Shown: positions 5,699 to 64,000 of the stretch, one piece after another
Layout: each line of letters begins with the position of its first letter
Numbering within the stretch: the stretch's first letter is position 1
NCBI GenBank assembly: GCA_963757675.1
Contig: CAVWTH010000011.1
Location: 69,682-133,681 of the forward strand
Direction of reading: 5' to 3'
Length of the DNA stretch: 64,000 nt
Origin: an uncultured Verrucomicrobiae bacterium
Lineage (GTDB): Bacteria > Verrucomicrobiota > Verrucomicrobiia > Chthoniobacterales > UBA10450
Notes under the pieces: generated by a model
Databases searched by the model: none
The model's input: only the letters and a program-made list of their open reading frames with translations
What the model was told of the DNA's origin: nothing
Position numbers and translations under genes: made by a program

Positions 5699-6802
5699 AG
5701 GTATTTCAAGTTTGCTGTCGAGATAAACGACCACAAATGCGATACCCAGCAACGGCTGGAGAATTCTTTGGACCACGCCCAGAACAAAAGCAGTAACATC
5801 AAAGCCGGCGGCTTGCTGTGCCTCAGTCATTTGTTGCAGAAGTGCCTGCGGGTCCTGTGTCTTTAGCAATTCATTGGAAAAATGCTGCAGCGTTCCCCAT
5901 TGTGCCGCGAGAGTGATCGCCAATACGAAGGCGAACCAGATCGACGCGATAAATGCACCGCGCCATATGGGTCGTTGAAACCACGGAAGATCCCGCCCGC
6001 TGCGCGCGAGATCCCGGCTCTCACGCAATGAATCGATGAATCCTGCGTTCTCGAGAACGGCAAACTGCTGCCAGAACAGAACGTTCGCGAAAAAACGGCT
6101 GAACATCCAGACCTGCAGGATGAGCAAACCCATCGCGACAAGGGCCACCAACACTGAGGACGCCCCGGCAAGAGCCATCGCAGCAATCAGCAATCCGAAG
6201 ATCATGAGCAGGAAGAACACGCCGTAAACGAATATGCACAGCGCCGCGACGCGCGGCCAAAACTTGACCGCTCGATTGAGGACAGCGACCAGGCCGGGTC
6301 GATTTCCCCGCGCAATTTCCGCGGTGAGGACTTGAATTCCAGCGATGTACACCGGCCACATCACAACCGAGAGGATGAACGTGAGAAAGGCAAAGCCTGC
6401 GCCAATGACCGAGCGGAGATCGACATTAGAGCCCTGTGGCGGTTGCACGAACGCCGTCGTTAACTGGCTGCATATCGACGGCAACAAGATCAGCAGTGTG
6501 AGGCCAACGAATTGCAAAAAACCTGTCCGGTAGATCTGAAATGTCTGCGCTAAAATCTGGGTAAAGCTGCGATGCGAGATTTGCAGAGGCGGTTGTGTCA
6601 ATCGTTGGGGGCTCGCCACCTCGAGCACCTCTACATCAAAGAGCCCCGGAATTTCCGCTGCTGTTGTCCAAAGATCAATGTTGTCGCGGCGCGCTTCATT
6701 AGCCGGAAGCAATCGGCCCTCTGCTTTCCACTCGCGGAGAGTCTCGATGTCTGCCGGGCCGTATTCCCTGCCCTGCACGCGCACGATCCATTCTTCGGTC
6801 AT
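5648..6802 (-). CDS. GYF-domain (DUF4339-like) N-terminus fused to a polytopic membrane domain
   Basis: MTEEWIVRVQGREYGPADIETLREWKAEGRLLPANEARRDNIDLWTTAAEIPGLF followed by about 6 TM helices. Start moved to ATG 6802. The 3' end overlaps the convergent 4205..5698 gene by 51 nt. Confidence 0.55.
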   Translation of the reverse strand: MTEEWIVRVQGREYGPADIETLREWKAEGRLLPANEARRDNIDLWTTAAEIPGLFDVEVLEVASPQRLTQPPLQISHRSFTQILAQTFQIYRTGFLQFVGLTLLILLPSICSQLTTAFVQPPQGSNVDLRSVIGAGFAFLTFILSVVMWPVYIAGIQVLTAEIARGNRPGLVAVLNRAVKFWPRVAALCIFVYGVFFLLMIFGLLIAAMALAGASSVLVALVAMGLLILQVWMFSRFFANVLFWQQFAVLENAGFIDSLRESRDLARSGRDLPWFQRPIWRGAFIASIWFAFVLAITLAAQWGTLQHFSNELLKTQDPQALLQQMTEAQQAAGFDVTAFVLGVVQRILQPLLGIAFVVVYLDSKLEIPSHVEPIVSAGEGDTVR

Positions 6803-14536: not shown

Positions 14537-14560
14537 ACCGCGAGGGCGCTCGAAACAGGA

Positions 14561-14645
14561 CGGATGGGGGGGGATTCGAACCCCCGGTGCCTTTCAGCAC
14601 ACACGCTTTCCAGGCGTGCACAATCAACCACTCTGTCACCCATCC
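14561..14645 (-). tRNA. tRNA-Ser (anticodon GGA)
   Basis: GGATGGG-TG-ACAG..-CACGC-CTGGAAA-GCGTG-long variable arm TGTGCTGAAAGGCAC-C-GGGGG-TTCGAAT-CCCCC-CCCATCC-G. Confidence 0.9.
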
Positions 14646-14679
14646 AAGTTGGAACTCGACATTTTAGCCACAAACGCGC

Positions 14680-14794
14680 TGTAGGGGAAGCTGCAGCTTC
14701 CCGTTTTCTGGATTTGTTGTAGCCGTCGCCCTGTGGGCGACGATCCGTATCGTAAGCGGACCCCAGGGCCGCGCTTCACAGGGAAGCGGCTACA
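14680..14794. repeat. REP cluster: single TGTAGGGG REP plus a 77-nt TGTAGCCG REP doublet
   Basis: 14680-14702 is TGTAG-GGGAAGCTG/CAGCTTCCC, an 18-nt perfect palindrome. 14718-14794 is TGTAGCC-GTCGCC-CTGTG-GGCGAC, a spacer, then GCCGCGCTTC-ACAGG-GAAGCGGCTACA. Confidence 0.75.
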
Positions 14795-15649: not shown

Positions 15650-16495
15650 TCAAGAACGGTTGTAGCGAGCGTATCGACCGCGGCGAAGCGCCTCTAATAG
15701 CGCAATTTCTCGCCCGCGGAATCTCAGCGTTTGGGCCTTCGGCAGATGCGCCATGCAATATTCTTCGCCATCACTCGCGACGCGGAAATCCAGATTCGGA
15801 TCGCTTAGCTCGGTGGCGCCACAGACCGCGCAACGATGCAGTGTCTCAGCTGGGCTGCGCGAGTCCGTTTCAAAACGTTTGCGCCGCGTTGAAACATCAC
15901 GGCGATGCCGCGCCTCATGAATGATTTCCGGCCCGAAAAATATGAAGTAGTTCGCGAATGCAGCGACGAGCGCAGCGCGATACGAATTCGGGCCCAGGAC
16001 AAATCCGAACAGCAAGAACGCCGCGAAAATCCACGCCAGCCATTTGATCTTTACCGGCAGAATAAAAAGGATGTAGATGACTTCATCTGGATAAAATCGC
16101 GCGAACGCAAAGAACAGGGACGTGATGAGCATTCCATTGGAAAAATTGCCGCCGAAAAAGAAAGCGGCGACGGTTGTGCCGATCATCCCGATGACGAAAT
16201 ACAGTGTGAACCGGAACGGCCCCCAGGCGCGTTCAAGCCCTTCGCCGATGAACCAGAGAAACCAGAGCGCCAGCACGACCCAAAGGCTTAGGGTCTGCGG
16301 TACGAAGATGTAAGTGACGAGCCGCCAGACTTCGCCGTGGCGGATACGCGCCGGATCGAGATCGAGCGCGAAACGGAAATCAGGATTAAGCCAGATCAGC
16401 CCCCAAACGAGCGCCGTGAGGCCAACAATGATGCGCGTCAGTCCGGGAATGCCGAGAAAACCAAAACGGCGTTCGAGTTTATCCAGCAAGGTCAT
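15650..16495 (-). CDS. rhomboid-like polytopic membrane protein with a C-terminal Cys/His cluster; catalytic motifs not evident
   Basis: GEVWRLVTYIFVP..FIGEGLERAWG matches rhomboid TM1-TM2. I cannot find GxSG or the TM6 His. The C-terminus has HRCAVCG..CMAH. Confidence 0.55.
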   Translation of the reverse strand: MTLLDKLERRFGFLGIPGLTRIIVGLTALVWGLIWLNPDFRFALDLDPARIRHGEVWRLVTYIFVPQTLSLWVVLALWFLWFIGEGLERAWGPFRFTLYFVIGMIGTTVAAFFFGGNFSNGMLITSLFFAFARFYPDEVIYILFILPVKIKWLAWIFAAFLLFGFVLGPNSYRAALVAAFANYFIFFGPEIIHEARHRRDVSTRRKRFETDSRSPAETLHRCAVCGATELSDPNLDFRVASDGEEYCMAHLPKAQTLRFRGREIALLEALRRGRYARYNRS

Positions 16496-16535: not shown

Positions 16536-16591
16536 GGTAGGGGCGGTTCACCTGAACCGCTCTCGGGCGATTGAGGTCAATCGCCCCTACC
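16536..16591. repeat. compact REP doublet (REPIN-like), 56 nt, intergenic
   Basis: GGTAG-GG-GCGGTTCA-CC-TGAACCGC-TCTC-GGGCGATTGA-GG-TCAATCGCCC-CTACC. Confidence 0.8.
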
Positions 16592-16602: not shown

Positions 16603-17724
16603 TTGCGCGTGAGCGAAGCCGCACAAAAACGGACTCCACTTTACGACGAACACGTGCGGCTGGGAGCGAGAATCGTTCCGTTCGCAGGATGGCTGATGCC
16701 GCTGCAATACACCAGCATCGTGGAGGAACACCAGGCAGTGCGAAACAATGTCGGCATTTTCGACATTTCCCATATGGGTCAGTTGATCGCCGATGGATCG
16801 GGCGCTCGCGAATGGCTCAATATCATGCTCACAAACAACGTCGACAAACTCGATGTCGGCGTCGGGCAATACACATTTTTGCTGAGCGAGCGCGGCGGAA
16901 TCATTGATGACCTGATCGTTTATCATATCGCCAAAGAGCAGTTTCTGCTCGTGGTAAACGCGGCGCGTATAGATGAAGATTTTGCCTGGCTGCAAGACCA
17001 TCTCAACGAGGGGCGATCTACTTGTAAACTCACAAATCGCAGCACGAATTTTGGCGGAGTGGCCATTCAAGGTCCGCGCATCGCAGAACTGTTCCATGCT
17101 CTCTTTGGCGCAAATGCCGATCTTCCGTCGCGAAACTCGATTGCCGATTTGCCATTTGATGGGACGACTATGTCCGTCGCGCGGACCGGTTATACCGGCG
17201 AGGATGGCATTGAAGTTTTCTTTCGTACAACGGATGCGGTGAAGTTTTGGAATGCCGTCCTCGAAAAAGGAGAGCCGCTAGGAATCAAGCCGTGTGGCCT
17301 CGGCGCGCGCGACACGTTGCGGCTGGAGATGTGTTATCCCCTCAACGGTTCAGATCTGTCGCCGGAACGAAATCCGATCGAGGCGGGACTCGGTTTCTTC
17401 GTCGATCTGACAAAACCAAACTTTATCGGGCGCGAGGTCTTGTTGAACACAAAGGATACCGGACCGCGCGAAAAACTTGTGCCGTTTCGAATGAAAGAGA
17501 AAGGTCCGCCACCCCGGCCGCACTACGCAGTGTTCCGGGACGCCGAGCGCATAGGTGAAGTGACCAGTGGCACTCTTTCTCCGAGCTTGAACTGGGGCAT
17601 TGGCATGGCGTATGTGTCGTCGGCGCACGCGAAGATCCACGCAGAGATTGAAATCGAAATTCGCGGGCAAAAGTTTGCTGCCACCGTGGAAAAAAAACCG
17701 CTCTACAGAAAACCAGCATCATGA
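16603..17724 (+). CDS. gcvT: glycine cleavage system aminomethyltransferase T
   Basis: TPLYDEHVRLGARIVPFAGWLMPLQY..EEHQAVRNNVGIFDISHMG..ARTGYTGEDGIE..GLGARDTLRLE. Confidence 0.94.
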   Translation: MRVSEAAQKRTPLYDEHVRLGARIVPFAGWLMPLQYTSIVEEHQAVRNNVGIFDISHMGQLIADGSGAREWLNIMLTNNVDKLDVGVGQYTFLLSERGGIIDDLIVYHIAKEQFLLVVNAARIDEDFAWLQDHLNEGRSTCKLTNRSTNFGGVAIQGPRIAELFHALFGANADLPSRNSIADLPFDGTTMSVARTGYTGEDGIEVFFRTTDAVKFWNAVLEKGEPLGIKPCGLGARDTLRLEMCYPLNGSDLSPERNPIEAGLGFFVDLTKPNFIGREVLLNTKDTGPREKLVPFRMKEKGPPPRPHYAVFRDAERIGEVTSGTLSPSLNWGIGMAYVSSAHAKIHAEIEIEIRGQKFAATVEKKPLYRKPAS

Positions 17725-37823: not shown

Positions 37824-38005
37824 GCGCGCCTGCTTATTTTTGCCTCGTTTGGGATCTAAAGCGATGGCAAACTTACGCAGTGCGGCTGCGTTTCAACGTC
37901 AGGAGCAATGATCGGTCAGTCATCCCAAGCGAAGGCGAGGGACCCCGTGGCACTATCTTAAAGCACCGCCACGGCATTCCTCCATTTCGGTTCGCTTCGT
38001 TCACA

Positions 38006-39400
38006 ATGACAGCAGTGTGTTCGCTCGTGCTATCCTTGCTCACTGTCGTTCCGGCCGATGCACGTGAGACAATTCATAAAGGCGATGTCGTTGTGGTGCC
38101 GTTGCATGGTGAAGTTGCGCCCTCACTACTGGCATTCCTGCGGCGCGCGGTAAAGACGGCCGAGAACAACGAGGCTTCCGCGATCGTGCTTGACCTGGAC
38201 ACCTACGGCGGTCGCCTCGACACAGCGACCGACATTGTAAATGCGCTGAATCAAATCAACATCCCGACCTACACGTTTATCGATACGAACGCAGGATCGG
38301 CTGGCGCGTTGATCGCTATTGCCACGGAACATATTTACATGGCGCCGGTGAGCGCAATTGGCGCGGCTGCACCGATCCTTTCGACGGGCGAAGATCTTCC
38401 TGCCACGGCAAAGGAAAAAACTATCTCGTATTGGTCTGCACTCATCCGCGGATCGGCAATCAAGAACGGCCACAATCCCGACCTCGCCGAGGCCTTCATG
38501 AACAAAGACAAGGAAGTAAAAATCGGTAACCGCGTCGTCCATCCAAAAGGCGCGATTCTCACTATCAATGCGCCGGAAGCCACTGAAAAGATCAACGGCA
38601 AACCCTTACTCGCAGAAGCGATTGCCAATTCGATTTCTGATTTGACCAAAAAAGCCGGATTGAAAGGGAAGATTGTCAGGATTGAGCCAACTGGGTTCGA
38701 GCAGATTGCCTTTTGGATCACTGCGCTTGCGCCGTTGCTGTTGCTCGGCGGAATTCTCGGTGCGTATTTGGAATTCAAGATTCCTGGAGCAACTTTGCCG
38801 GGCGTTATCTCTGCGATTTGTTTCGCGCTTTTTTTCTTTGGCCATTATCTCGCGGGGCTCGCTGGCTGGGAGGTCGTCGCGCTTTTCGTTCTTGGAGTGG
38901 TTCTTGTGCTGATCGAGATATTTTTCTTCGCGCACAGCACAATAGTGTTCGGCATGGTCGGCGTGTTTCTTATGATCGCGTCGCTTCTCTGGACAATGAT
39001 TGATCGTTACCCACAGCAACCGTTCTTACCGACCGGCAAAATGCTAGCGATCCCATTACTCAACATGTTGATCGCAGTTGTGGGAGCATCCATCGTGATC
39101 GCCCTCCTCGCACGTTACCTTCCGCGCACCAGCTTTTACCGGCGATTTGCCTTGATCGATTCAAATCCGTCCGGCACATCGCTGGCAGGCGAGCCGCGAC
39201 ACTTCGCAACCGCACTCGCAATCGCGCCCGGAACGCACGGCACGGCAGTTACCGTGTTACGACCCAGCGGGAAAGCGCGCTTCGCCGACCACCTCGTCGA
39301 TGTCGTCACTGAAGGCGAATTCATTGCCCCGCTAACCCCCGTCACTGTCATCCAAACTGACGGGATGCGCGTGGTAGTGAAAAGCAGTACGTCGGTCTGA
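38006..39400 (+). CDS. NfeD-family membrane-bound ClpP-class serine protease
   Basis: VVVPLHGEVAPSLLAFLRRAV..AIVLDLDTYGGRLD..AGSAGALIAIA..IYMAP, then TM helices and a C-terminal OB-like tail. ATG at 38006. Confidence 0.8.
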   Translation: MTAVCSLVLSLLTVVPADARETIHKGDVVVVPLHGEVAPSLLAFLRRAVKTAENNEASAIVLDLDTYGGRLDTATDIVNALNQINIPTYTFIDTNAGSAGALIAIATEHIYMAPVSAIGAAAPILSTGEDLPATAKEKTISYWSALIRGSAIKNGHNPDLAEAFMNKDKEVKIGNRVVHPKGAILTINAPEATEKINGKPLLAEAIANSISDLTKKAGLKGKIVRIEPTGFEQIAFWITALAPLLLLGGILGAYLEFKIPGATLPGVISAICFALFFFGHYLAGLAGWEVVALFVLGVVLVLIEIFFFAHSTIVFGMVGVFLMIASLLWTMIDRYPQQPFLPTGKMLAIPLLNMLIAVVGASIVIALLARYLPRTSFYRRFALIDSNPSGTSLAGEPRHFATALAIAPGTHGTAVTVLRPSGKARFADHLVDVVTEGEFIAPLTPVTVIQTDGMRVVVKSSTSV

Positions 39401-58011: not shown

Positions 58012-59147
58012 ATGCCTGATGGCTCCGAGCTTCTCTGCCCGCGATGTAACGTGCCACTGAAAGAAGTGCGCACTTCGGGCGGCGTTTTTTACGCGTGCAA
58101 TCGCTGCGGCGGTCGCGCGGTAACTATCGAACTGCTGCGCAAACGCTTCACGCCCGAGTCAATCAATCCGCTGTGGCTGCATGCAGTGCAGGGCCAGGGA
58201 CGAATCGGCCCGCCGTGTCCATCGTGCCGGCAGCCCACGATCGACGTTGTTTTGTCCGATCAGGCGCAGATCGACGTAGACGTTTGTTCGCACTGTCATT
58301 TCGTCTGGTTCGATGCGCATGAAGTAGAGACGCTTGTTCCTCGCCAGCCGGCCGCGCCGCTCCAGAACTCCCGCAAAAAGCGCGCGAGCTGCTCGCGATT
58401 CGCGAAGTAGAGCGCTTGTCAAAACAGGCCGAGGGCTCGGATTTAGACAGCGTCGCACCCGAGGAAGCGTGGAAACAGATCGCCGCATTCGCTGGGTTAC
58501 CAGTCGAATTTGACGCGCCGGAAGAGCCGCGGAAACCGTGGACAACATGGCTGCTTTCGGCTGCCATTGTTTGCGCGAGTCTCCTGGCTTTTCCACATCT
58601 CCGCGAAGTCGTTCAACGTTTCGGATTGATTCCAGCCCAGGCGACGCGGCTCGATGGTCTTACGTTCGTAACCTCGTTCTTCCTTCATGCAGGAATCATT
58701 CATCTGGCAGGTAATATGTATTTTCTGCTGGCCTTTGGCCACGCCGTGGAAAACTTCCTGCGACCGCTGCGCTACCTGACGCTCATCGCACTGGCAGCAT
58801 TGATCGGTGACTTGGCGCATATCGCCCTCGACCCCAACTCGCAGACGCCAAGCATCGGCGCAAGCGGTGGCATTTCCGGGGTGATTGCGTTTTATGCGCT
58901 GAATTTTCCACGGATGCGACTCGCTTTTCTAATGCGCTGGGGATTTGTCTGGTTTCGCTGGATTCGATTGCAGGCCTGGTTCGCTTTCGTTCTCTGGGTT
59001 TTGTTCCAGTTCATCGGCACTCTCGAGCAGAAGGCAGGAATGAGCTCCGTCTCATCGGCTGCGCATTTAGGCGGAGCCGTGATGGGGGTTGTCGCATGGA
59101 TCGTTTGGCGAAGACCTAACAGCGAAACTCAAATGTCGAAGGAATGA
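58012..59147 (+). pseudogene. zinc-ribbon domain fused to a rhomboid intramembrane serine protease, split by one apparent 1-nt deletion
   Basis: ORF 58012..58410 carries CPRC..CNRC..CPSC..CSHC. The frame of ORF 58416..59147 extends upstream as ..PELPQKARELLAIREVERLSKQ.. and carries the rhomboid motifs HAGIIHLAGNM, GASGGISGV and AAHLGGAVMG. The break is near 58361. Confidence 0.75.
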
Positions 59148-59395
59148 CGAAATCCGAATCGACTGGATACCATGGCATGTTTCGATATGGCATGCTTCCT
59201 TCATTCCTTATTTGGGCTTCGGGATTTGTAAAATGCGTTTGTCATTTTGCGTTCAGCATTTACTTTCCGACCCGCGATCTTTCCGCCTGTCCCGCGTCTG
59301 TGGGATAAATCAGTGAGCGAGGCTGGAAAGATCGATAAGAGAACAACAGCTCGCTGAACGAGGAGCCCCGAAACCATTGCCGGGGCAAAACAAAC

Positions 59396-59783
59396 ATGCC
59401 AAGAGCTACAAATGCCCCGGCAAGTCGTGCGCGCCGGAAACGAATGCTGAAAAAGGCGAAGGGCTACCGCGGTCGCCGTTCCAAACTTTTTCGTTACGCC
59501 AAAGACGCCGTTATGAAGGCCAAGTATTGGGCGTATCGCGACCGCAAAACCCGCAAGCGCACATTTCGTTATCTTTGGATCCAACGTCTCAATGCTGCTG
59601 CCCGCGCAAACGGCATGACTTACAGTCGCCTGGCTGAAGGACTGAAAGCTGCCGGTATCTGCACTGGACCGCAAAATTCTCGCCGACCTCGCGGTCACCG
59701 ATGAAGCCGCATTCAAATCGATTGTTGATCTAGCGAAGAGCGCGCTGGAAGACAAAGCGAAATCGAAAAAGAAGGCGGCGTGA
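59396..59783 (+). pseudogene. rplT: 50S ribosomal protein L20 with one apparent +1 frame change
   Basis: [88 protein letters not shown], then the native [29 protein letters not shown] is in the next frame. The break is at about 59660. Confidence 0.9.
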
Positions 59784-59860
59784 TTCGTAAATCGAGATTG
59801 GTGAATCGAGATTCGATTTCCCGATTTAACGATGTAACGATTTAACGAATCACGAAATCC
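59782..59860. repeat. ATCG-rich dispersed repeat, copy B (rplT-pheS spacer)
   Basis: AATCGAGATT occurs twice. The 22-mer at 59830-59851 is identical to 23062-23083, with about three-quarters identity by eye over roughly 75 nt. Confidence 0.7.
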
Positions 59861-60875
59861 ATGCACCCGCTCGAACAACTGCGCGATGACGCACTGCGTG
59901 AAATTGAAGCCGCGCACGACCAAAAATCGCTCGAAGCGGTCCGGGTAAAATATCTCGGCAAAACCGGCAGCATCTCCGAATGGGGCGAGCGGATGAAAGC
60001 CCTCGCCAAAGACGAACGTCCGGTCGTCGGTAAGTTGCTCAACGAAGCGCGCAACGCCGTTACCGCGGCGCTCGACCAACGCGGAGAGAAAGTCCGCGTC
60101 GAAAAGGAATCGGACGCGCTTGCAACCATCGACATCTCCCTTCCGGGAACGCCCCACCAGATTGGTTCTCTGCATCCGCTTCATCAAATGCATGAGCGTG
60201 GAATTCAGATTTTTCGACGAATGGGGTTCGCCCTCGCTGAAGGCCCCGATGTGGAGACCGAGTGGTACTGTTTCGATGCTCTGAATACGCCGCCCGATCA
60301 CCCTGCACGCAACGAGCAAGACACGTTTTATTTGCCCGACGGACGGCTTCTGCGAACACACACGTCAACGGTGCAAATCCGCGCGATGGAATCTACGCCG
60401 CCTCCTCTGCGCGTGATTGCGTCAGGTGCGGCCTATCGGCGCGATGAACTCGACGCAACCCATAGCCCACAGTTTCATCAAATTGAGGGCCTTTACGTTG
60501 ATGAAAACGTGAGCGTCGCCGATTTGAAAGGCGAGCTCGACTTCTTCCTGCGGGAACTCTTTGGCGACGAAACCGAGGTGCAATTTCGTCCGCATTACTT
60601 TCCGTTTACCGAACCGAGTCTGGAAGTTTATGTCCGATCAAAAGCTCTGAAGGGCGGCGAACAGTGGATCGAGGTGTGCCGGTTGCGGCGTGGTGCATCC
60701 AGCCGTTTTCGAAGCGGTCAATAAAGCGCGCGGCGATGACGCTTACGATCCGGAAAAGTGGAGCGGCTATGCATTCGGCCTCGGCATGGATCGCCTGGCG
60801 ATGATTCTATTCGACATTCCCGACATCCGCCTGTTTGCGCAAAACGATTTGCGGTTTCTCCGCCAGTTCGCATGA
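59861..60875 (+). pseudogene. pheS: phenylalanine--tRNA ligase alpha subunit with one apparent +1 frame change
   Basis: ..HPLHQMHERGIQIFRRMGF..FDALN.PPDHPAR..DTFY..LLRTHTS.VQIR..YRRDE.DATHSPQFHQIEGL..FRPHYFPFTEPS.EV.. then ..EQWIEV / [28 protein letters not shown] continues in ORF 60690..60875. The break is at about 60677. Confidence 0.92.
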
Positions 60876-60884
60876 ACCCACTTT

Positions 60885-60955
60885 GTCATTCCGAGCGAAG
60901 TCGAGAAATCTCTGGATGTTGTTCTCGAGAGATGTCTCGCCTTCGCTTGGCATGA
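60885..60955. repeat. long imperfect palindrome of the GTCATTCCGAGCGAAG family in the pheS-pheT spacer
   Basis: GTCATTCCGAGCGAAGTCGAGAAATCTCT, an 11-13 nt loop, then GAGAGATGTCTCGCCTTCGCTTGGCATGA. A half-copy GTCATCCCAAGCGAAGGCGAGGGACC is at about 37919-37945. Confidence 0.75.
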
Positions 60956-60968
60956 GACTGAAACCAAA

Positions 60969-63320
60969 ATGAAATTCTCCGTTAATTGGCTGCGCGAATT
61001 TGTCGATCTTCCAAAAAATCCCGAAGAGATCGCCGAATTGCTAACTCGCGCCGGTATTGAAACCAAAAAAATCGAGACGCGCGGCGCGAACATCGACAAG
61101 GTGATCGTTTCGCAAATCACTGCATCGTCCCGCCATCCGAATGCCGATCGGCTCACGGTTTGCGAGGTGGACGACGGCAGCGGCACGAAACGCCAGATCG
61201 TTTGCGGCGCCACGAATTACAAAGTCGGCGACAAGGTTCCGCTCGCGCTTCCGGACGCGAAGCTGCCTAACGGCATGGAGATTCGAAAGAGCAAACTTCG
61301 CGGCGTCGAATCCGAAGGAATGCTTTGCAGCCCAATCGAGCTCAGTCTCGGCGAAGATGCCTCCGGTCTGTTGATCTTATCGCCCGATGCGAAAATCGGG
61401 GCGCCTATTGGCGATCTTTTTCCAGCAGATACGATTCTGGACGTCGAGATTACGCCAAACCGCGGCGATTTGCTGAGCCATTTCGGTCTTGCTCGCGAAA
61501 TTGCCGCTTTGACAAATAAGGAAACTGTAGGGCAAGCGCATCGCTTGCCGGCAGGCGGAGCGCCTGCCCTACAAAAATCGGGCATTACAATTTCCGCAAC
61601 GCGCGAATGCCCATTTTTCTCGCTGCGTAAAATCGACAACGTAAGCGTGGGTCCGAGCCCGCAGTGGTTGCGCGCGAAGCTTGAGAGCGTCGGCGTTCGC
61701 TCCATCAGCAATATCGTCGACATCTCCAATTTCGTGATGCTGGAGCTCGGTCAGCCCACGCACGCGTTCGACGCCGATAAATTGAAGGGCAGCATTAATG
61801 TGCGGCTCGCGCGCGACAGCGAGAAGTTTCTCGCACTGGATGGAAGCACCTACACGCTCAAGCCGGACAATTGTGTTGTCGCCGATCAGGAACGTGCCGT
61901 TGGGATCGGCGGCGTAATGGGTGGCGAAGAAACGGGTGTGACCGATTCGACCAAAAATATTTTGCTCGAAGCCGCTTATTTCTTGCCGGCGAGTATTCGC
62001 CGGACGGCGCGCGATTTGAGTCTGCAAAGTGATGCGAGTTATCGATTCGAGCGGGGCGTGGATCCGGAAATGATTTTGCAAGCGTCGCACCGCGCTACGG
62101 AATTAATGCGCGAAATCGCCGGTGGAGCGCCGGCAAAAGAAATCCATGTCGCCGGTGAACTTCCCGCCAATCCAGCGGACTTCTCGTTGATTTACGAAAA
62201 ATGTGACCGCGTGATCGGCATCTCCATTGATCCAGAGGCTGTTGATGAAATTCTCACCCGGTTCGGGCTGCGGAAAACCACGAGCACGAACAAAGCCGCA
62301 ACCTGGCAGATTCCAAGTTATCGGCGGGATTTGCAGCGCGACGTTGACCTGATCGAAGAAGTCCTTCGCGCGTACGGAATAGACAGGGTTCCTGGAAGAA
62401 CGCGCGGCCGTTTCATCTCCACGAGTGAAGCTGATCGTTCCCACGATTTCGAAACTCTTATTCTGCGCGAACGATTGACTGCATGCGGTGTGTCGGAAGT
62501 GCGGACCTCAAAATTGATTTCGAGGAGCGTTGCGGCTTTGAACGAAGCAATCGAGTTGCGGAATCCGTTAAGCGAAGATCACGTTGCGCTGCGGCCAACA
62601 CTGATCAGCGGTTTGCTCGATGTGCTCGAACGAAATATTCGCGCGGGCGCCGAGAGTGTTTCCATCTTCGAGATTGGCCGAGTATTCATCCCGCCATCTG
62701 CGAAAGAGGAACGACACCTCGGAATTTTGCTTTGGGAAAATGCGATCAGCGCTCCTAATTGGCGATCCCACACAAGACGTACCGTCGACTTGTTTGATCT
62801 CAAGGGCGTGCTCGAATGTGTTGTTCCAAATCTGTCGTTTCGGGCAGAAAGGTCCCCCGATTTCGCGCTCGCGGTCGAAGTTTGGTCTGGCGATGAGCGG
62901 ATCGGATTTGGCGGCCACCTCTCGGCGGGCAAATCGAGCGCCGCGGGTTCAGTGCTTGTTGCCGAACTCCATGCCGATCCTCTTTTGGACAGTGGCGGTT
63001 CAGCAAAAAAATTCCGGGAACTCGATCGCTACCCTTCGATCACTCGCGACATCGCGATGATCGTTCCTAACAAATTGACCCACGCTGAAATTTCACGCGT
63101 GATTCAAGAACCGCCGGAACCGTTGCTCGAAAGCGTGCAATTATTCGACTTGTTTGAAATCAGCGAAGATACGGATCCGACTGCTTCCGGAAAATCACTT
63201 GCATATAGATTGACATACCGCGCTAAAAATCGCACACTCACAAACGAAGAAGTGACTGCAGCGCACGCGAAGATTCGCGAGCGACTAAAGCGCGAACTGA
63301 GCGTGACGCTGCGGGAATAG
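60969..63320 (+). CDS. pheT: phenylalanine--tRNA ligase beta subunit
   Basis: 783 aa. MKFSVNWLREFVDL.., tRNA-binding domain (HPNADRLTVCEVDDG..VCGATN), B3_4 (..RDL.L.SDASYRFERGVD), B5, and the FDX-ACB C-terminus. Intact, but contains the repeat at 61526-61573. Confidence 0.95.
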   Translation: MKFSVNWLREFVDLPKNPEEIAELLTRAGIETKKIETRGANIDKVIVSQITASSRHPNADRLTVCEVDDGSGTKRQIVCGATNYKVGDKVPLALPDAKLPNGMEIRKSKLRGVESEGMLCSPIELSLGEDASGLLILSPDAKIGAPIGDLFPADTILDVEITPNRGDLLSHFGLAREIAALTNKETVGQAHRLPAGGAPALQKSGITISATRECPFFSLRKIDNVSVGPSPQWLRAKLESVGVRSISNIVDISNFVMLELGQPTHAFDADKLKGSINVRLARDSEKFLALDGSTYTLKPDNCVVADQERAVGIGGVMGGEETGVTDSTKNILLEAAYFLPASIRRTARDLSLQSDASYRFERGVDPEMILQASHRATELMREIAGGAPAKEIHVAGELPANPADFSLIYEKCDRVIGISIDPEAVDEILTRFGLRKTTSTNKAATWQIPSYRRDLQRDVDLIEEVLRAYGIDRVPGRTRGRFISTSEADRSHDFETLILRERLTACGVSEVRTSKLISRSVAALNEAIELRNPLSEDHVALRPTLISGLLDVLERNIRAGAESVSIFEIGRVFIPPSAKEERHLGILLWENAISAPNWRSHTRRTVDLFDLKGVLECVVPNLSFRAERSPDFALAVEVWSGDERIGFGGHLSAGKSSAAGSVLVAELHADPLLDSGGSAKKFRELDRYPSITRDIAMIVPNKLTHAEISRVIQEPPEPLLESVQLFDLFEISEDTDPTASGKSLAYRLTYRAKNRTLTNEEVTAAHAKIRERLKRELSVTLRE
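61526..61573. repeat. TGTAG-type REP doublet (REPIN-like), 48 nt, in frame inside pheT
   Basis: TGTAG-GGCAAGCG-CAT-CGCTTGCC-GGCAGGCG-GAG-CGCCTGCC-CTACA. Translated as TVGQAHRLPAGGAPALQ. Confidence 0.8.
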
Positions 63321-63629
63321 TTCTTTGAAAGAAAAGAGCCGTTTGTTGAGGGTTGGGAAGAAAACCAGTGCTTTTCTCTCAACTCTCGACTAACGGCTCT
63401 TCACGCGGTCCCGAATTAGTTCTGATTTTTGGGATCGAACATTTACCCTGCGATGTTCGAGATTACGAGGTGAGATTCCCGAACCGCTATTGATAGAAGC
63501 AAGGAGGCTGGGTCGCCCGCAGAACATGGCAGGCCTTTATTGGAAGTCAGACGCTGTGGCGACGGTCATCCACCCGTGACTGTAAGGGAACGGGTGATCC
63601 GCCTAAACGGCATCGGCGGGGTAACATTT

Positions 63630-63663
63630 AAAACCCGGATCGAAAAATCGATCCGGGTTTTTT
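63630..63663. terminator. strong bidirectional intrinsic terminator
   Basis: AAAA-CCCGGATCGA-AAAA-TCGATCCGGG-TTTTTT. Perfect 10-bp GC-rich stem (14 bp with the A/T flanks). Confidence 0.85.
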
Positions 63664-63756
63664 CGTTATGGAAGCGCTAAAGCGTTCTAGAAAGCATTGT
63701 CTGCTTCACGCAACCGATTTGAAAATTCGCTCGCAATCCCGATACTGGGCGGTGAC

Positions 63757-64000
63757 GTGCGCACCATTCTAGCTCTCGAAGACGGCCGGTATTTTGAGGG
63801 CGAATCATTTGGCGCAAGCGGCACATGCGTCGGTGAGATTTGCTTCAACACCGCGATGACCGGTTATCAGGAAGTGCTGACGGATCCTTCGTATCGCGGG
63901 CAGATCGTGGCGATGACGTATCCGTTGATCGGAAATTATGGGACTAATTCGCTCGACCAGGAAAGCCGTTCCCCGCACGTGCGCGGATTTGTAATCGAGG
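63757..64000 (+). CDS. carA: carbamoyl-phosphate synthase small (glutamine amidotransferase) subunit, N-terminal 81 codons (continues past window end)
   Basis: Not in the ORF track. From GTG 63757: [77 protein letters not shown]. This matches the CarA N-domain pattern (..VFNT.MTGYQE.LTDPSY..QI...TYP.IGN.G.N). Confidence 0.9.

Follow-up and report, generated by a model that had tools for sequence, protein, structure and literature searches.

The 64-kb stretch of DNA analysed here (hereafter the window; all coordinates refer to it, and L-numbers designate the related loci and contigs used for comparison) carries an intact pheT gene, encoding the β subunit of phenylalanyl-tRNA synthetase (PheRS), into whose reading frame a 48-nt palindromic element is embedded (Table 1). 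This element is a doublet of repetitive extragenic palindromic (REP) units. The encoded PheT protein aligns over its full length with that of Escherichia coli (7n8y/3pco; E = 1e-132), and its domain limits were taken from Pfam together with this alignment. In the frame ACT GTA GGG, the doublet codes for residues V187–Q202 (VGQAHRLPAGGAPALQ), which are preceded by T186 and sit between the end of the tRNA_bind domain at residue 145 and the start of the B3_4 domain at residue 214. An AlphaFold2 model of PheT, for which 42 close homologues were aligned, was too poor (mean pLDDT 40.8, pTM 0.27) for any structural claim to be drawn. The nearest PheT matches (82–93% identity) are labelled Candidatus Udaeobacter or Chthoniobacterales (Verrucomicrobiota), and all of them stem from soil metagenomes or metagenome-assembled genomes (MAGs).

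The anatomy of the element is that of a GTAG-tagged REP dimer. A repeat search returned two perfect 8-bp stems with 3-nt loops (61531–61538/61542–61549 and 61550–61557/61561–61568), contained in two 24-nt arms (61526–61549 and 61550–61573) that are 83% complementary; the right unit differs from the left one by a single compensated stem pair and by the loop. An unpaired GTAG tag lies at 61527–61530 and its counterpart CTAC at 61569–61572, and the GC-rich stem-loops beside the tags have the short stems (5–13 bp) of GTAG-tagged REPs. As in REPINs (inverted REP pairs forming one mobile unit), the two units can fold as one hairpin: at the RNA level, positions 61516–61583 form a single long hairpin (-35.3 kcal/mol, z = -4.8), while at the DNA level two hairpins are formed with a GTAGG/CCTAC stem closing both (-21.3 kcal/mol, z = -4.6). 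The REP sequences and bacterial interspersed mosaic elements (BIMEs) of E. coli resemble the pheT element in being GTAG-headed imperfect palindromes, often in inverted pairs, that are associated with a REP-associated tyrosine transposase (RAYT; TnpA-REP); unlike it, they are extragenic, have longer, bulged stems, and play documented roles in mRNA stability and in the binding of gyrase and integration host factor.

In the window, the pattern TGTAGGGC..GCCCTACA occurs twice and GTAGGG..CCCTAC three times (177–225, 16537–16590 and 61527–61572), and neither occurs in any of 100 dinucleotide-preserving shuffles. Thus, what an earlier reading of these letters, made without database searches (the sequence-only reading), had described at this place holds: the 48-nt sequence with its hairpins and TGTAG/CTACA brackets, its in-frame position in an intact pheT, its placement in the linker that joins the N-terminal module to B3/B4, and the presence of similar copies in frame in alaS and in an intergenic region. 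An Rfam scan of 59000–64000 gave no match overlapping the element at E values up to 1, and a terminator and promoter scan found nothing at the element, the hairpin being followed by AAAAA and no T run. An intein or intron at this position was ruled out, given that the segment comprises 16 codons only, lacks a splicing domain and always keeps the frame.

Table 1. Features of the window and occupancy classes of the PheT linker in related loci.
Feature	Position	Strand	Remarks
REP doublet, tail-to-tail dimer, 0-nt spacer	61526–61573	none	TGTAG-GGCAAGCG-CAT-CGCTTGCC-GGCAGGCG-GAG-CGCCTGCC-CTACA
Left REP unit	61527–61549	+	GTAG head, 8-bp stem GGCAAGCG/CGCTTGCC, loop CAT
Right REP unit	61550–61572	-	minus-strand reading GTAGGGCAGGCGCTCCGCCTGCC
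pheT, phenylalanine-tRNA ligase beta subunit, intact, 783 aa	60969–63320	+	Pfam domains and E. coli alignment
Pfam domains of PheT			residues: tRNA_bind 45–145; B3_4 214–385; B5 409–470; tRNA_synthFbeta 499–652; FDX-ACB 687–782
Hypervariable inter-domain PheT linker, T182–E213, 32 codons	61512–61607	+	28 codons in REP-free orthologues
REP doublet in frame in alaS, different stem family	176–226		gene on minus strand, 1–1122, N-terminal 374 aa in window
Intergenic REP doublet, third stem family	16536–16591		between divergent ORF (15650–16495, -) and gcvT (16603–17724, +)
Intergenic GTAG REP cluster	14680–14794		units 14680–14702, 14719–14744 and 14771–14794, two families; beside tRNA-Ser (GGA), 14558–14646, -
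Linker class: family 1, as in window			L001, L016, L017, L024, L025, L029, L058, L061
Linker class: family-1 subfamily, other left junction			L068, L072, L073, L078
Linker class: family 2 (GGCGTTTC/GGCGTCTG)			L002; L019 decayed
Linker class: GGTCATCGCG/GGGCGGCGCG			L035, L074
Linker class: GGACGCCTC/GGACGTTTC			L053, L057
Linker class: CTGCCGCYG/GTCCGCTG units			doublet L071; single units L012, L027, L033, L041
Linker class: long GC-rich palindrome			AAAPSPR..RGRAGS
Linker class: longer inverted repeats			SSFRA..GSLDFARDDK
Linker class: decayed REPs			L004, L009, L056, L067

The element is a member of a dispersed family. A scan for GTAG followed by a 7–12-bp stem, covering the window and 80 related pheT loci (1.42 Mb), returned 187 sites as against 16–35 in shuffled sequence; these sites group into discrete stem families, many of them arranged as inverted doublets. 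The family of the pheT element, designated family 1 (GTAGGGCARGCGCNNCGCYTGCC), is found in exact form in at least 120 soil-metagenome contigs; an extended TTGTAG/CTACAA head is common to most of its members, and copies outside pheT are present in L006, L016, L052 and L073. Among the metagenome matches listed, there are 124 family-1 elements, most of which (88) are intergenic, and 36 of which lie deep in open frames spanning 200 codons or more, part of these possibly being chance open frames; the genes concerned include pheT (L161), alaS (L165) and a recurrent protein of ~580 aa (L103, L116, L120, L145), among others. The strict-pattern matches are mostly single units, with doublet spacers of 0 to ~35 nt where two arms are recognised, and partner arms belonging to subfamilies may have been missed. 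In these matches, the family-1 REP is read in two stop-free frames only, yielding either VGQAHRLP/AGGAPALQ or CRAGASPA/GKRSACPT, and never in the frame containing TAG, which is the survivorship filter expected of translated insertions.

Copies of the left unit occur in metagenome contigs also beside RAYT genes, which were identified with the NCBIfam profile NF047646 (REP_Tyr_transpos; cut-off 80 bits). In L124, inverted family-1 REPs at 6104–6126 and 6580–6602 flank a RAYT gene (6142–6651; 84.4 bits), while a RAYT slightly below the cut-off (78.7 bits) sits between two family-1 doublets in L115. In three further contigs (L143, L128, L186), a RAYT homologue shares the contig with family-1 REPs; the RAYT of L045 (85.3 bits) is flanked by a REP of a different GTAG family. 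For family 1, the arrangement of a RAYT flanked by its own REPs, known as a REPtron, is present in metagenome contigs; in the 64-kb window itself, the search returned no RAYT, so that the cognate transposase is established at the level of the family only. At their 3' ends, the RAYT ORFs of L124 (6580–6651) and L045 (3926–3980) extend into their own flanking REP, so that the predicted transposase C-termini are made of REP-coded residues (..GKRRACPT.. and ..VIDRRYS.., respectively).

Because the anatomy, the discrete dispersed families and the RAYT-flanking copies agree, the REP reading of the pheT element is well founded. A feature of GTAG-tagged REPs that is lacking is the extragenic location, given that the element lies within an intact gene; since intragenic members are documented (PMC3733652), assignment to this class is still allowed. 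The GTAG and CGTC REP superfamilies were defined by Di Nocera, De Gregorio and Rocco in 2013 (BMC Genomics 14:522; PMC3733652), who reported intragenic REPs in several species, in greatest number in Opitutus terrae (Verrucomicrobia), for which 70 cases are compiled in their Additional file 3. Many of these intragenic GTAG REPs are dimers coding for 15–16 aa, genes for glycyl- and isoleucyl-tRNA synthetase in other species were listed as holding REPs, and linkers and loops were argued to render such insertions neutral. The O. terrae REPs share with the pheT element the GTAG head, a GC-rich stem of 6–9 bp and a short loop, and their tail-to-tail dimers likewise have spacers of 0–2 nt and lie in frame in housekeeping genes; the peptide AGGAPAL coded by the REP in Oter_0701 is identical to that of the right arm in pheT. 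In contrast to that study, the host here is a member of the Chthoniobacterales of the Udaeobacter type, represented by metagenome assemblies only, and pheT and alaS are outside the 2013 list. The kind of element is, therefore, already described, as are intragenic GTAG REP dimers in a member of the Verrucomicrobia and in tRNA synthetases, and the novelty that the sequence-only reading saw in an in-frame REP was overstated. What goes beyond the 2013 work is the recurrent occupancy, throughout an order, of one orthologous linker in an essential gene by various REP families, together with the conservation of the arms beyond synonymous sites.

Two other systems invite comparison. Like the pheT family, the REPIN-RAYT systems (Bertels and Rainey 2011; PMC3116915) comprise an inverted REP pair folding as a hairpin and a single RAYT gene that is flanked by the family, and REPIN sequence and position are described by these authors as being kept over long times. 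Classical REPINs are extragenic with a spacer of tens of nt, whereas the pheT doublet has a 0-nt spacer and each of its arms is a perfect hairpin; moreover, the RAYT linkage of the pheT family is seen in metagenome contigs only. Rickettsia palindromic elements (RPEs; Ogata et al. 2000, as related in PMC3733652), the older precedent, are, according to that description, likewise small, palindromic, mobile and in frame at tolerated protein sites; RPE-1 is longer and unrelated in sequence, its host is an obligate intracellular alphaproteobacterium, and RPE-4 and RPE-6 are placed by PMC3733652 in the CGTC-tagged class without a dedicated transposase, as opposed to the GTAG tag found here, so that the likeness, judged by description, is functional only. 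A literature search on palindromic elements or REPs of Udaeobacter found none, and a keyword search on in-frame REPs in synthetases gave no relevant match.

Across the Chthoniobacterales, the PheT linker turned out to be a hot spot for such elements. Full-length pheT genes from 74 genomes of the order all have open frames, and at least five GTAG REP families, in addition to other palindromes, occupy this one linker (Table 1). Folding of the linkers gave z < -3 in 24 of the 74 and z of about 0 in ~30, the latter representing the REP-free form of 28 aa (TGKKLKSTARESKIPVKKTGV...). On a neighbour-joining tree of PheT calculated with the linker masked, the linker classes are distributed patchily, and sisters often differ (L029/L033, L016/L019, L001/L015, L017/L020). 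Measured from the CTAC of the right junction, the conserved GVTI codons lie 7 to 14 nt away depending on the family, which favours several separate events. The family-2 doublet of L002 (2846–2944) has a left junction, AAGAAAATT|GTAGGGC, identical to that of family-1 alleles (L001, 10544–10639); by its sequence, this allele suggests that REP cassettes may be exchanged in place between shared GTAGGGC/GCCCTAC ends. Presence and absence as well as turnover of REP families are thus seen at orthologous sites of pheT and also of alaS.

The in-frame doublet of the alaS gene at the edge of the window occupies a loop which is ~18 aa shorter in human alanyl-tRNA synthetase (AlaRS). Among close relatives, this loop is found empty (LPKHGSAGESDQEKID), with the doublet type of the window, with a family-1-headed insert (VGQAHRLP..GSRSGRPT), or with one of several longer unrelated inserts. 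A second coding hot spot for REPs is the Lhr helicase (~1470–1576 aa) encoded 3' of pheT, in which the segment separating the WH_Lhr domain from the DEAD_assoc domain holds in-frame GTAG REPs belonging to two or more families (L016, 14597–19009, minus strand; also L011, L012, L013, L014, L017, L020 and L047; examples LSVGEADSFPYKIEEW and LVGSPRCGDRTAQRAVPT). A split alaS, considered in view of AlaRS calls of ~400–650 aa on long contigs, was rejected; at L201 (4740–5040), frameshifts are seen in a continuous AlaRS sequence, which are probably metagenome assembly errors.

The linker comparison also bears on how the element came to lie in pheT. According to the sequence-only reading, the 16 residues might be a lineage-specific insertion; yet the PheT proteins of the 120 closest orthologues (777–796 aa) are approximately as long as that of the window, the E. 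coli alignment shows a 2-residue gap only across the linker, and at the DNA level of the 74 loci the REP-free linker has 28 codons (TGKKLKSTARESKIPVKKTGVTITSTRE) versus 32 in the window. The 48-nt doublet, therefore, fills room that elsewhere belongs to an ordinary linker stretch of 36 nt. For alaS, comparison with the empty allele (LPAHGSGGEGEQEKI) shows a net gain of 13 codons from a doublet of 51 nt. With gains of 4 and 13 codons, respectively, and no clean empty site, the original codons were partly lost or replaced.

The arms of the element are conserved at the DNA level. Compared with L001, L016, L025 and L029, the window element is identical at 45/46, 44/46, 45/46 and 43/46 positions (93–98%), while 300 flanking coding bases are 74–84% identical and upstream third codon positions 44–66% (Fisher p = 5e-3 to 6e-4 versus the flanks and 3e-5 to 1e-8 versus third positions). 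In alleles with a spacer (L017, L024, L058, L061), the arms are identical at 41–44/46 positions and the spacers are unrelated; overall, the spacer between the arms measures 0, 3, 9 or 12 nt. Since synonymous sites are conserved too, selection at the protein level cannot account for this. The conservation presumably reflects maintenance at the level of the REP and not a function in PheRS, for which the segment is probably neutral; such maintenance may come about through constraint by RAYT recognition, through gene conversion between copies in the genome, or through recent passage of the small allele from one lineage to another. The many alleles that are unstructured or decayed lower the likelihood that the hairpin has a local function.

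On these grounds, we consider it well supported, with a probability of roughly 0.85, that the pheT element is a non-autonomous GTAG REP doublet of the kind mobilised by RAYTs, which landed in, or was exchanged into, a pre-existing, tolerant linker of PheT; a RAYT would then be the agent that moved it. In the proposed course of events, a RAYT, a single-strand DNA transposase of the HUH/Y1 type, would mobilise the doublet in trans, and a copy would land in, or be exchanged into, the linker codons between the N-terminal B1/B2 module and B3/B4. Only copies avoiding the TAG frame and keeping the downstream frame would survive, and the surviving copy would be translated, its Gly/Ala/Pro-rich 16 residues taking the place of most of the former linker and lengthening it by 4 residues net.

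Several points weigh against this interpretation. At the filled and empty junctions of pheT and alaS, neither a target duplication nor a clean empty site is visible, and the filled alleles of both genes miss part of the original loop. The window holds a single family-1 doublet, next to three sites of other GTAG families, and its lack of a RAYT gene counts here as well. That the segment is translated is suggested by frame conservation only, and arms so strongly conserved within coding sequence may also signal a local function.

The last point leads to two readings in which the palindromes at domain boundaries are retained for a reason. According to the first, the doublets of PheT, AlaRS and Lhr in Udaeobacter would be more than passengers: they would be maintained as DNA or RNA and, as exemplified by L002, replaced cassette by cassette at their sites, either by RAYT cleavage and strand transfer or by gene conversion, and the hairpin could serve as a translational pause or regulatory site; we hold this to be unlikely. 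If true, the REP/RAYT system would shape protein linkers, with a host-level function inside coding regions. According to the second, which appears a little more doubtful still, the palindrome is a domesticated REP and no passenger, kept for a local job, such as the slowing of ribosomes by an mRNA or DNA structure at a domain boundary for co-translational folding of the N-terminal module, buffering of mRNA decay, or binding of gyrase, RAYT or nucleoid proteins. Such a job would fit arms conserved far above flanking synonymous sites around a freely varying spacer, the very stable RNA hairpin (-35.3 kcal/mol), the recurrence of unrelated palindromes at the PheT linker in many lineages (the 24 of 74 with z < -3), and the presence of REPs in two other multidomain proteins, namely in an exposed loop of AlaRS and between two Pfam domains of Lhr. 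However, about 30 of the 74 orthologues, including whole clades, do with an unstructured linker, REPs at the site have decayed in L004, L009, L056, L067 and L073, family 1 is elsewhere mostly intergenic (88/124 among the matches listed), and no terminator-like or Rfam signature marks the element; besides, concerted evolution or exchange of REP alleles explains the identity of the arms equally well.

That the palindrome was born locally, when template switching or mutation templated by a hairpin acted on a GC-rich linker, and resembles a REP by chance without ever having been mobile, would account for the missing target-site duplication and empty site and for the nearly constant linker length (28 versus 32 aa); it is very improbable, given the identical 23-nt units at many unrelated loci and beside RAYT genes, the shared TTGTAG/CTACAA head, and the occupation of the site by several discrete families whose junctions differ. 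An artefact of assembly or binning, in which a repeat was misjoined into pheT of a MAG, has next to no credibility: the window seems to be MAG-derived, its closest relatives all being MAGs, and contains at least one probable indel error, in pheS near 60680, but the same in-frame element is present in pheT of dozens of independent assemblies from differing projects and assemblers, with the ORF always intact.

The neighbourhood of pheT offers further observations. The pheS gene (59861–60872) seems to be frameshifted near 60675–60690; its ORF 59861–60724 covers positions 1–191 of 246 of tRNA-synt_2d, and the rest of PheS runs on in the next frame to ~60872. As pheS is essential, a single-base assembly error is the probable cause. 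An unrelated 72-nt inverted repeat, GTCATTCCGAGCGAAG..CTTCGCTTGGCATGAG, lies in the pheS-pheT spacer (60885–60956) and again at ~37919–38010, the latter copy 5' of the probable start of a protein with a signal peptide; the 103-nt stretch enclosing the former (60866–60968) folds with -42.4 kcal/mol (z = -5.3). The SSFRA..GSLDFARDDK inserts present in frame in the PheT linker (L006, L007, L015, L036) open with the GTCATTCCGAGC motif of this repeat and seem to be elements of the same type. Just 3' of pheT, a candidate 6S RNA (RF00013; 63442–63626, plus strand) matches the full model with 38 bits, which is below the gathering threshold of 46.4 (E = 3e-5).

As the principle of in-frame REPs is already published, the gain in knowledge is incremental and of moderate interest for the biology of REPINs and RAYTs. 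For genome annotation, REP-coded peptides such as VGQAHRLP/AGGAPALQ, which recur in unrelated proteins, pose a hazard and may mislead homology searches. For the organisms themselves, the finding means that an essential aminoacyl-tRNA synthetase subunit is able to carry a live-looking mobile palindrome in frame, and this in a Udaeobacter-type lineage that is among the most abundant soil bacteria and in which the same linker is repeatedly occupied by differing REP families. The PheT linkers of these bacteria, thus, constitute a natural data set on where proteins tolerate foreign sequence, on how REP/REPIN populations persist, and on whether RAYTs exchange elements in place.

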